From a virus (taxonomy: Duplodnaviria; Heunggongvirae; Uroviricota; Caudoviricetes), in the IMG/VR virus record IMGVR_UViG_2703718868_000013, positions 1 to 7,867 of that record: a stretch of 7,867 bases of DNA; one strand, 5' to 3'. This document shows positions 3,001 to 6,000 of this stretch, one piece after another (position 1 is the first letter of the stretch; each line of letters opens with the position of its first letter). Made by a program: the position numbers.

Positions 3001-6000
3001 CCATCCGCGATAACGCCTTCGTAATACTCACGTTGCTCGTTGAGTTTTGATTTTTCTGCTTCCAGCTCATTCAGTAGAGCCAGCACAACCTGCGGCGTGG
3101 CCTTCGCGCGAAACGCCGCCAATCTTCGAGCTGTTGCCACTGTTTGTATTGCGGCTGCCGCCTTACGCAGTGCCTGATAGTTGATCTCGCTCATTTTTCT
3201 CTTCACTCCGGTATACAAGGATTACTACGCCCCCTCTGCTAATTGCGCGAGCTGGATCCCCTGGTTCCATGCCGTCAATCCCGAAGGCTTCGAAAAATGC
3301 ATCCATTGCCTTCTGGCGTTGATCCTGCTTACGGCGTTTATTCCATTTTTTCATGAACAACAGTGACAGCCATCGTCCGCTGCAGAACATGATGTAGAAA
3401 TAACCAAGGAGCGCCAGACCGACATTAAGAGCCGTATCTATGGTTAGTTGTGAGTCAGTCGCCATCAGACTTTCTTACCTGTTTAAGTAACTGGTTGAAC
3501 ATAACGCTCAGGGGATTGCCGTATCCAAACGGCAGATTGTTTACGCGATACAGAATCATTTTGTTTTTTTCACCAGTTCGTACAATTAACCCATTCCACA
3601 GTAACCGTGATAATTCATTACTGATAGAAACTGCGCTTCTTCCAAGTGCGAGGGATATATCTTCTCTACTGCAATCTGGATTTTCCTGGATATATTCGAT
3701 AACGGTCATGTGGTCCACTTTAGTTAATGGCGGTTTCTGATTGCATGCTATTAGTATTCATTTCGTTAATAATTTCATCCAGAAGGAGTTCAAGCCCTTC
3801 TCGACCCATATCTGAAAGAATGAAACCTTTATCAGGGGAAGTAGTGAGCATTTTCTGATAAAGAAATAGTGCTCTACCCATTCCTTCTGCCTCGCCGTAT
3901 TTTTGAATTAAATTCCATTCAATATACTGTTGTAAGGCAAAACGAATGGGGCCGGGATATATCGTCATAACCCCATGCTTCCCGTTATATATTACGGCGC
4001 GATCTGTTGTTCCGTGTTCGTTTGGGATATCAATAGTGCCATTCTTGTTTTCTTCTTCGTTGATGAATGTCGTCACGTACAACCAGCGCCACTGGGCTAC
4101 CTTCATCTCAACAGGGAGTTTACCCAGTAATCCTGCATTGTCGGCTTGTGCGAGGCATTGAAGGATTTGCAAACCTTTCACATTAGGATGATCGAATTCA
4201 CCTGCATCCAGACGGCGGATTGCGTCGTGATAATCAATAGTCATACTGCCAGTTCGTATACCTGTGGCTGTTGCTTCAGCCTGGAATTCAGTGTATTGCA
4301 TGATATTTACTCCTCATCTTCATCTGCTGGTGCAATAACGTCATATCCTGCCTTTTCTGCAATAAACAGGAATGTTGAAAGACTTCCTACAAGTTCATCG
4401 TCATGAACATGACGAATTAATATTACTTTCCCGTTTTTGATGGTCAGCAATACTCTGGTTTGCTCGTGTTCTGCTGTTTTCTGATGCATTATTATCTCCC
4501 GTATGCTTTACGCAGAAACAAGCAGGCAATATGCATGTAATTTTTCCCGTGCTGTGCAATAAGGCAGGCTGTTTTGTGTGATGCCTTATGTTTTATAAAG
4601 GTCATATAAAACCTCCTGTGGATTAAGGGTGTGATAATCCCCGGCGATTAAGCCGTAATATATTATCCGGAGATGACTTGTTCTATTTAACTGGTTAGTT
4701 CTTTTTCAGCAGCTGCTTCAGCATAGCAACGTGCAAATTCAAGAACTTCATCACCTGTTCTTTTTATTGCATCGTTGTCTGACATTTGTAATACAACAAC
4801 TGCGCATAATAAATTATGGATATTGTTTGCAAAGGAATCCGGTGCCAGGCATAAGCCTTCATACTTATCATGGATATTGCCAGTCATTGTTGCTACTCCT
4901 TTGCTTCTGATTTTCCCGTTAACAACCACATCAAGTTACAATTAAGCGCACTGGCCAGTGGTACTATCTGAGCAGCTGGAACTTCATGGATGCCGCATTC
5001 CCAGTCGTTTATGGGGTCACTATAGGTATGAATCATGCGGGCAAGATCAGATTCGGTTAATCCCAGTTTTGTACGGGCGCTTTTGATGCGTGCGCCAATA
5101 CTTTCCACATGGACTTCAGGCACATTTACGCGAATAACTGACTCGCTGTTTTTTTCACTCAGCAGAGAAAGCGGATCGCATCCTAGGACGTTTGCCAGGG
5201 GGATAAGCATGCTGATGGTTGGCTCGTACTCTCCACTCTCCCATTGCAGAATAATCTCTTCGTCAAGATCGAGTAGTCTGGCTAGTTCGGTAGTCGTCAA
5301 GCCGCAGGCTTCACGTTTGGTGCGTATGCAGGCTATCTTGTTGCCTGAGCGAATAGAATGTTGTTGTTTTGTCGATGCGATCGCTAAAGCATATTCATGA
5401 GTAAATTCCAGCACATCAAACCCAACCTCTTTTAATCGCGTATCATCCAGGAGGTTGAAGGTGCGAACAGCACTGAGCAGGTTTGCGATGGTTAATGCAA
5501 AAGAATCGAGGTCTAAATCATCACATAAAACCTTGTTGTAAGTATTGAGGCTACATGTTTTTGGTGTTGTTTGTAAGGCTTCCATATCATCACCATGCAA
5601 TTCTAAGTTGAAGTTAATCAATATATAATTGATGGTGAGATATTATGTGTCAGGTAAACTAGTGTCAATCAAAAATTGATAAACTTGATTTTTTTGTAGT
5701 GGGTGACAAATAATTTAATTTAAAATCAACAACTAACCAAATCTGTTGATATTGAATGGTACAGATGAGATGACTTTTGACTGGATATACAGCAGCGCCA
5801 TTCCCTCTTTTTCGATGCTCCACGGCTGATAGTTGGGATTGTCTGATAAGACCATGATCTTGCTTCCAATTTTTTGAAGTCGTTTGACGTAACATTCGCC
5901 ATCAAAGCAAAATGCATAAATGCCATCACCGTCAAAATAAGTTACTGTTTTATCTAAAAACAGTAAGTCACCTGGGGCGATTGTTGGGGCCATGCTGTCC

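Follow-up and report, generated by a model that had tools for sequence, protein, structure and literature searches.

The 7,867-nt stretch of viral DNA considered here (positions 1 to 7,867 of IMG/VR record IMGVR_UViG_2703718868_000013; hereafter the window, in whose coordinates all positions are given) is the immunity region of an Escherichia coli Shiga toxin (Stx)-converting lambdoid prophage, comprising its integrase-to-early-right part. The repressor gene, cI, occupies 5733–6422 on the minus strand, and downstream of it on the same strand lies a gene for a tandem helix-turn-helix (HTH) protein (4893–5585), the first gene of the leftward operon. The segment at 5617–5680, in the gap between the two, very probably constitutes the leftward early promoter (PL) and operator (OL) region of the prophage, a reading to which we assign a probability of about 0.85. 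A first-pass annotation of the sequence had placed an OL-type operator, sharing a motif with the right operator region (OR), at a promoter downstream of cI. The comparative evidence presented below supports that core idea but not the operator anatomy that went with it. The layout, in which OL occupies the gap between the cI stop codon and the first leftward gene, is that of P22-, 434- and HK022-type immunity regions.

cI encodes a protein of 229 amino acids with HTH_3 and Peptidase_S24 domains, which matches UmuD/LexA and the 434 repressor, and the GDSM serine, the VKRL lysine and an upstream Cys-Gly dipeptide are all seen in its translation. The protein thus combines an HTH with a LexA/S24 self-cleavage domain, as expected of a repressor of this type, although the closest named or characterized phage repressors are at most about 41% identical to it. 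The tandem-HTH protein (230 amino acids from the ATG at 5585) belongs to phrog_4836, a 'CII-like regulator' family (E 3e-91), and contains two 434-repressor-like HTH domains.

The leftward promoter and its operators

The near-consensus minus-strand promoter that had been described between cI and the tandem-HTH gene is present. Its predicted σ70 elements are a −35 hexamer TTGACA at 5663–5668 and a −10 hexamer TAATAT at 5640–5645, separated by a 17-nt spacer; they lie on the same strand as cI, which stops at 5733, and would direct transcription away from it into the left arm, whose genes run down to the integrase gene int. The TTGACA-N17-TAATAT sequence matches the consensus at 10 of 12 positions and is both the best σ70 match and the only site of at least 10/12 in the whole window. 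Taken by itself the hexamer match is not significant, as 85% of shuffled whole windows, and 21% of shuffled versions of the AT-rich gap alone, contain a match of at least 10/12. Among relatives, however, eight lineages all keep TTGAC in the −35 and, at an identical position, TAnnnT in the −10, although their spacers have diverged completely. It is from this conservation in relatives, and not from single-sequence matches, that the predicted feature derives its credibility. From the position of the −10, transcription is predicted to start at 5633 ± 2 nt on the minus strand, which would give a 5′ untranslated region (UTR) of ∼48 nt up to the ATG at 5585. A second minus-strand candidate, CTGACA-N17-AATTAT (5653–5625, 9/12), was discarded, its hexamers varying among relatives.

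The DNA downstream of the cI stop codon was compared among 83 loci with cI relatives (73–100% amino-acid identity), drawn from IMG/VR contigs, Citrobacter, Pseudocitrobacter and an unclassified Enterobacteriaceae genome, which together provided 61 distinct OL sequences. The comparison revealed a 17-bp dyad, ATCAA[G/T]-N5-[A/C]TTGA[T/C], that occurs twice at OL. Both dyads are found in 60 of the 61 sequences, with a spacing of 47 bp in 53 and 48 bp in seven; the single exception carries a 1-bp deletion in one site. An ungapped alignment of the eight lineages, which cover the same range of cI identity, shows how sharply the conservation is confined to these elements. The invariant columns read ATCAA.TTT..cTTGAC, then TA...T 17 nt on, then CATCAA.T..A.cTTGAT, while none of the 17 columns of the promoter spacer, and none of the 25 in each flank, is invariant.

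In the window the upstream dyad, OL2, is found at 5664–5680 (ATCAATTTTTGATTGAC on the minus strand; centre 5672). It is an exact consensus match, ATCAAT-N5-ATTGAC, and scores 17.0 with a weight matrix that was built from the most distant relatives only, to avoid circularity. OL2 extends from about −47 to −31 of the predicted transcript and overlaps the −35; five of the six −35 bases, TTGAC, are its promoter-proximal half-site. The second dyad, OL1, at 5617–5633 (ATCAATTATATATTGAT), is likewise an exact match and forms a perfect 6-5-6 palindrome downstream of the −10, covering about +1 to +17 of the predicted transcript. By geometry alone, therefore, both sites overlap the promoter. The array is not of the lambda type, in which three adjacent operators stand about two turns apart; there are two full sites, and the only candidate for a third is an orphan half-site, discussed below.

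OL1 lies outside the span that had been annotated, and its status as non-coding DNA depends on the start of the tandem-HTH gene, which differs by record. In the DDBJ entry the gene starts at a TTG at 5621, which also gives the longest open reading frame (ORF), whereas RefSeq places the start at the ATG at 5585. The 111-bp gap quoted by the first-pass annotation is correct for the TTG and becomes 147 bp with the ATG; with the TTG start OL1 would count as coding. We favour the ATG because the TTG sits within OL1, 12 nt from the predicted transcription start and without a ribosome-binding site, while the ATG is preceded by GGTGA.

The 13-bp repeat, the 14-mer and the OR sites

The operator as first drawn consisted of two adjacent elements, a 13-bp inverted repeat ATCAA-AAA-TTGAT at 5668–5680 (centre 5674) and a 14-mer, ATAAACTTGATTTT, at 5679–5692, which together were taken to be a full repressor site shared with OR. 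Both elements exist, and the recurrence of the 14-mer at 6457–6470 with one mismatch is readily confirmed; the match in fact extends to 20 nt at 85% identity, and the 14-mer is invariant among close variants of the window lineage. Comparison with shuffled sequence, which the annotation had proposed as a check, shows that the sharing of the 14-mer is only modestly above chance, with 46 of 2,000 dinucleotide-preserving shuffles sharing a 14-mer with at most one mismatch between the intergenic regions. The TTGAT/ATCAA half-site is more clearly enriched, with nine copies where 2.3 are expected in the 279 intergenic bp (1 of 2,000 shuffles), and CTTGAT occurs four times against 0.28 expected (0 of 2,000).

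The anatomy itself does not survive comparison with relatives. A 13-bp inverted repeat with at most one mismatch is expected 0.53 times per window and is found at least once in 83 of 200 shuffles, so that its occurrence here is at chance level. In the lineage whose cI is 93% identical the site reads ATCAATTTTTTCTTGAC; ATCAA-N3-TTGAT is gone but the 17-bp dyad is kept. The repeat is out of register with that dyad, as it includes the correct distal arm (TTGAT, 5676–5680) joined to the wrong partner, the conserved partner being TCAAT at 5665–5669, across a 5-bp centre. It was thus rejected as an operator. The conserved dyad at the −35 is instead 5664–5680, OL1 had been missed, and the 14-mer contributes a single half-site, CTTGAT at 5684–5689, which reads ATCAAG on the minus strand and is located 9 bp upstream of the OL2 distal half. 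This orphan matches the consensus perfectly and is flanked by an A-tract within AT-rich sequence, but no dyad partner at N5 spacing was found for it. Across the eight lineages 0 of the 25 columns that contain the 14-mer are invariant. Lineages with a GC-rich terminator at this position lack the half-site, and its counterpart in lineage C is displaced, 21–22 bp away, and variable (ATCAAG, CCCAAG or CTCAAG). The likeness between OL and OR in the 14-mer therefore reflects a common half-site-plus-flank consensus rather than a full shared operator, and it is very improbable that the repeat and the 14-mer together make up the repressor site.

The orphan half-site could nevertheless be an accessory element, either a weak OL3-like site that would recruit an extra repressor subunit or the −35 (TTGATT, 5685–5690) of a plus-strand promoter, TTGATT-N18-AATAAT (5685–5714), directed antisense into the 3′ end of cI. 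Its perfect ATCAAG, the A-tract flank that it has in common with the cI-nearest OR site and the presence of a parallel extra CTTGAT in OR (6522–6527), 11 bp from the central OR operator, are all consistent with such a role, and the promoter-like site scores 9/12. We consider the accessory role unlikely, as the half-site is not conserved outside the window lineage. The antisense promoter was rejected: it is lineage-specific, and scores of this order are no commoner than in shuffles, the window containing nine sites of at least 9/12 where 13.9 are expected. Comparison of AAAAAAATCATCAAGTTTAACTTGAC in one relative (L006) with AAAAAAATCAAGTTTATCAATTTTTGATTGAC in the window suggests that the half-site may be a vestige of an ancestral left half of OL2, if it is not a weak accessory site.

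Sites that match the dyad consensus with at most one mismatch occur at only four places in the window, all intergenic. Two are the OL sites, starting at 5617 and 5664 (no mismatches), and two lie in OR, starting at 6451 and 6500 (one mismatch each). Whole-window shuffles contain a mean of 0.31 such sites and 0 of 500 reach four; none of 5,000 composition-matched shuffles restricted to the intergenic DNA does so. The same four sites head the weight-matrix ranking (18.1, 17.0, 15.9 and 13.2), followed by a non-conserved site at 12.0 and then by 5.7, the 95th percentile of the shuffle maxima being 13.7. OL and OR thus have in common a dyad operator of which each contains at least two copies. The cI-nearest OR site, OR-c, at 6451–6467 (ATCAAGTTAATATTTAT on the minus strand), has the highest score of all, 18.1, and its sequence, ATCAAG-N5-[A/C]TTTA[T/C], is found at the same position in all lineages; it is this site that the second copy of the 14-mer overlaps. 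The central site, OR-b, at 6500–6516 (ATCAAGAATAAATTAAC on the minus strand), reads ATCAAG-N5-ATTAAC in every lineage, 49–50 bp from OR-c. At the cro-proximal position, OR-a (6530–6546), the window sequence is degenerate, with four mismatches; in relatives the site has 0–2 mismatches and stands 30–31 bp from OR-b. Across lineages there are three operator positions in OR.

Two further sequences within OR are invariant in all lineages. CTTGCATG, with TTGCAT on the plus strand (6494–6499), directly adjoins OR-b and is a candidate −35 for the rightward promoter PR, and ATTTTA at 6466–6471, which overlaps OR-c, reads TAAAAT on the minus strand and is a candidate −10 for the repressor-maintenance promoter PRM. 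The hexamers that would pair with them are weak, TTGCAT having a poor −10, and PR and PRM were left unassigned. OR also contains a direct repeat of CTTGAT with an 11-bp period at 6511–6527 (TTCTTGATGTA TTCTTGATTTG), one copy belonging to the central operator and the other being the extra half-site at 6522–6527. The latter is found in lineages A and B, is degenerate in C and absent from D, and parallels the orphan beside OL2. Elsewhere in the window, the tandem-HTH gene contains near its 3′ end the fifth operator-like sequence of the ranking (ATCAAGTTACAATTAAG, 4930–4946; two mismatches, score 12.0), which is not retained (ATCAGGTCACAATTAAG) even in relatives of 97–98% identity and is probably a chance occurrence.4930–4946; two mismatches, score 12.0), at the 3′ end of the tandem-HTH gene, is probably a chance occurrence and is lost (ATCAGGTCACAATTAAG) even in relatives of 97–98% identity. 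A repeat within cI at 5942–5966, with perfect 10-bp arms around a 5-nt centre (TTACTGTTTT-ATCTA-AAAACAGTAA), resembles a LexA box in its TACTG...CAGTA arms. Its CTG-N13-CAG spacing is not N10 and synonymous changes destroy it in all other lineages; the repeat is probably incidental.

Candidate regulators and genetic context

Which protein recognizes the dyads was approached by comparing two immunity types of the cI family. Among 89 fetched loci, 87 contain exact motif matches, and these are located only at OL and, in three of the loci, at the cro-proximal OR site as well. The remaining two (L003 and L004) are heteroimmune. They retain the window flanks at 93–96% identity (up to 5332 and from 6894) but have a different cI and cro within 5333–6893, and their own motif, TTGATAC/GTATCAA, is again found only at their OL and OR. 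The operator sequence therefore switches with immunity type. The swapped module contains cI, cro, OL, OR and the initial ∼84 codons of the tandem-HTH gene, whose product combines an immunity-specific N-terminal domain with a pair of HTH domains common to the immunity types. Consistent with cI as the ligand, the recognition helix of the repressor, SAQSVQYWTTG, is identical in lineages A–D, which share the operators.

It is highly unlikely that the dyads are bound by another regulator to the exclusion of cI. The tandem-HTH protein, with its two 434-repressor-like HTH domains, would be a reasonable candidate, but the first gene of the PL operon differs among lineages that share the sites, so that the operators do not track it; identical operators are kept with an unrelated first gene, which rules this protein out. 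Furthermore, the heteroimmune phages, in which the DNA-binding domains of the tandem-HTH protein are ∼93% identical, lack the motif. The other candidate is Cro, homologues of which occur with the operators in all lineages, and for this reason the comparison cannot separate binding by cI, by Cro or by both. Operators specific for Cro would, however, leave the S24 repressor without a target. To our knowledge cI and Cro share operators in every characterized lambdoid switch, and it is probable that both proteins bind the sites here.

The least probable explanation, to which we attach almost no weight, is that the ATCAA/TTGAT repeats have no role in repression and arise by chance in AT-rich DNA or are sites for the integration host factor (IHF; core WATCAANNNNTTR). 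The region is indeed AT-rich, ATCAA is part of the IHF core, and neither the promoter nor the inverted-repeat match is significant in the single sequence. Against this, OL contains no match to WATCAANNNNTTR, the only one in the window being at 7046, and IHF sites in OL were thus dismissed. Moreover, dyad sequence and spacing are conserved across lineages whose flanks diverge completely, and the motif occurs nowhere outside OL and OR.

Assignment of 5617–5680 as PL/OL is not free of difficulties, and several points weigh against it. The promoter match is statistically ordinary for an AT-rich gap, 21% of shuffles attaining it. The two OL sites are separated, centre to centre, by 47 bp, or ∼4.5 turns, unlike the ∼2 turns of lambda. 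The OR sites, with halves reading ATTAAC and ATTTAT, are asymmetric, and neither PR nor PRM can be placed with confidence. Finally, binding and the transcription start are predictions for this immunity type, and cI and Cro binding are inseparable by comparison.

If the assignment is correct, the σ70 promoter at 5668–5640 on the minus strand would drive the left operon from a start near 5633, with the tandem-HTH gene transcribed first. In the lysogen, dimers of cI would occupy OL2 and OL1, blocking access of RNA polymerase to the −35 and to the start site and so keeping the left operon silent. Cro probably binds these sites too, and both proteins would bind the related OR sites at 6451–6467 and 6500–6516. 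During the SOS response, RecA-stimulated self-cleavage of cI would free PL and PR. The two OL sites might act independently, as in phage 933W, or might pair with OR through a loop of ∼0.8 kb. Control of the whole left arm by the repressor, together with looping between OL and OR, had also been suggested by the first-pass annotation, and is plausible by analogy with HK022 and phiKO2, which loop over distances of ∼700 and 630 bp, respectively.

The immunity type is a common one among Stx prophages. Over 4600–7000 the window is 97% identical to Stx2a-converting phages of Stx-producing E. coli (STEC) O145:H28 (LC567818 and others), and chromosomal prophages reach 98.5% identity to the window. Matches were found in 300 of 5,426 complete E. 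coli genomes, 72 of the 300 spanning most of the region. On the left, int is encoded at 75–1361 on the minus strand and a run of small left-arm genes lies on the same strand. Among these, a small ORF downstream of the tandem-HTH gene (4687–4887, minus strand) encodes a 66-residue protein of phrog_4587 that is a paralogue of the N-terminal domain of the tandem-HTH protein (encoded at 5376–5507 on the minus strand), with 48% identity over 44 amino acids (pairwise E 4e-9). No homologue of the N protein was found. On the plus strand, the cro-like gene of the YdaS family (6555–6812; 85 amino acids) is followed by a gene for a Rha-type protein (6858–7601). The start of cro also differs by record, being a GTG at 6555 in DDBJ and an ATG at 6579 in RefSeq; the upstream start is favoured because the N-terminal NDYD peptide is conserved in relatives.

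Searches for transcription terminators and RNA structures in the window returned little. A terminator scan found no intrinsic terminator after cI, where an AT-rich inverted repeat at 5718–5757 folds no better than shuffled sequence (z 0.52), and no convincing minus-strand terminator was found between PL and int. The predicted PL 5′ UTR shows no sign of structure (fold z 0.42), and Rfam families gave 0 matches in the window. In lineages B and D and in the Citrobacter-type loci (for example L026, L078 and L005) a canonical terminator hairpin, AACGGGC-N3-5-GCCCGTT, stands just after the cI stop codon, with a T run following it in most cases. The window lineage (5690–5732) and lineage C contain no intrinsic terminator between cI and PL; in the window prophage, transcription that begins at PRM may continue across PL and enter the left operon.

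Relation to characterized lambdoid switches

The locus resembles the OL/PL region of lambda in several respects. The promoter is directed away from cI, 17-bp dyad operators overlap the promoter core and have a consensus in common with OR, the repressor joins an HTH to a LexA-like self-cleaving domain, and the sites are presumably shared by Cro. The arrangement is nevertheless different. Lambda has three adjacent operators, 24 and 20 bp apart from centre to centre, whereas there are two here, 47 bp apart, flanking the polymerase footprint. In lambda rexAB lies between cI and OL, and OL is 2.3 kb from OR; here OL directly follows cI at ∼0.79–0.84 kb from OR. The operator sequences are unrelated to those of lambda, the N homologue is missing and, in a further departure, cI is preceded by a leader that contains a ribosome-binding site, AGGAAC. 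Because 47 bp corresponds to ∼4.5 turns, as opposed to the ∼2-turn spacing associated with cooperativity, the lambda mechanism is not transferable in detail, and the two OL sites are unlikely to show pairwise cooperativity of the lambda kind.

This raises the possibility of a geometry that has not been described for lambda. Sites that lie on opposite faces of the DNA, as the OL pair would at ∼4.5 turns, would rule out short-range pairing, and OR-b and OR-c are also widely separated, by 49–50 bp. Repression and autoregulation of PRM could then depend on cross-pairing of OL with OR, through the ∼0.8-kb loop, or on non-cooperative binding of the kind reported for 933W, with the orphan half-sites beside OL2 and OR-b providing lineage-specific tuning. 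We put this forward tentatively, as a reading with fairly low odds.

Among solved structures, the N-terminal domain of the 434 repressor is the nearest match both for the cI HTH (E 0.003) and for the second of the two HTH domains in the tandem-HTH protein (E 3e-6), although the similarity is weak. The 434 half-site is ACAAG, a short, AT-rich sequence built around CAAG, and 434 operators are 14 bp long. The operators described here differ in being 17 bp long with a 5-bp centre, but their half-site, ATCAAG, also has a CAAG core.

With respect to the number of sites, a parallel is 933W, itself an Stx-converting lambdoid phage with a two-operator OL. Its OL is without a third site, and its repressor has been reported to bind adjacent sites non-cooperatively (PMC5977221, PMC3317979). 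The likeness concerns site number; the operator sequence differs, and so, at the sequence level, does the specificity of the repressor, 933W not being among the close matches. In vivo looping between OL and OR has been described for HK022 and phiKO2/N15, at ∼700 and 630 bp, and in HK022 OL2 and OL3 are 53 bp apart (PMC8053113). As in the window, OL in these phages is directly downstream of the repressor gene and a short distance from OR, and in HK022 the operators are widely spaced. Their repressors and operator sequences are different, however. The YdaS-family Cro analogue finds its counterpart in CP-933P (PaaR2, YdaS, YdaT), in which the footprints of the repressor and of the YdaS-type Cro overlap on shared repeats and an analogue of PL/OL is located downstream of the repressor operon (PMC8630535). 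PaaR2, reportedly without sequence similarity to lambda CI, has 18-bp palindromic operators whose consensus is GTTTAGTAA (PMC8630535).

Literature searches retrieved no paper on this immunity type and no experimental description of its repressor-operator pair, and the nearest characterized repressor is, as noted above, only ∼41% identical; the locus therefore provides a fresh example of the established OL/PL type. In silico, the position, the predicted promoter, the shared dyad operators and their overlap with it, the change of operator with immunity type and the kind of repressor all agree with OL/PL, and conceptually the switch adds nothing beyond the established lambdoid model. What the comparison offers is a testable operator map, with the consensus ATCAA[G/T]-N5-[A/C]TTGA[T/C] and with two sites placed at PL and two or three at OR, for an immunity type of prophages associated with Stx2a, Stx2d and Stx1a in STEC O145:H28, O103:H2 and related strains. 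In Stx phages the number, affinity and cooperativity of the operators set the rate of spontaneous induction and hence toxin release (PMC5977221), and for this reason the map should be useful in studies of lysogen stability. If the undescribed geometry outlined above were to prove correct, it could set the induction threshold, and hence the Stx2a output, of the O145/O103 prophage family.

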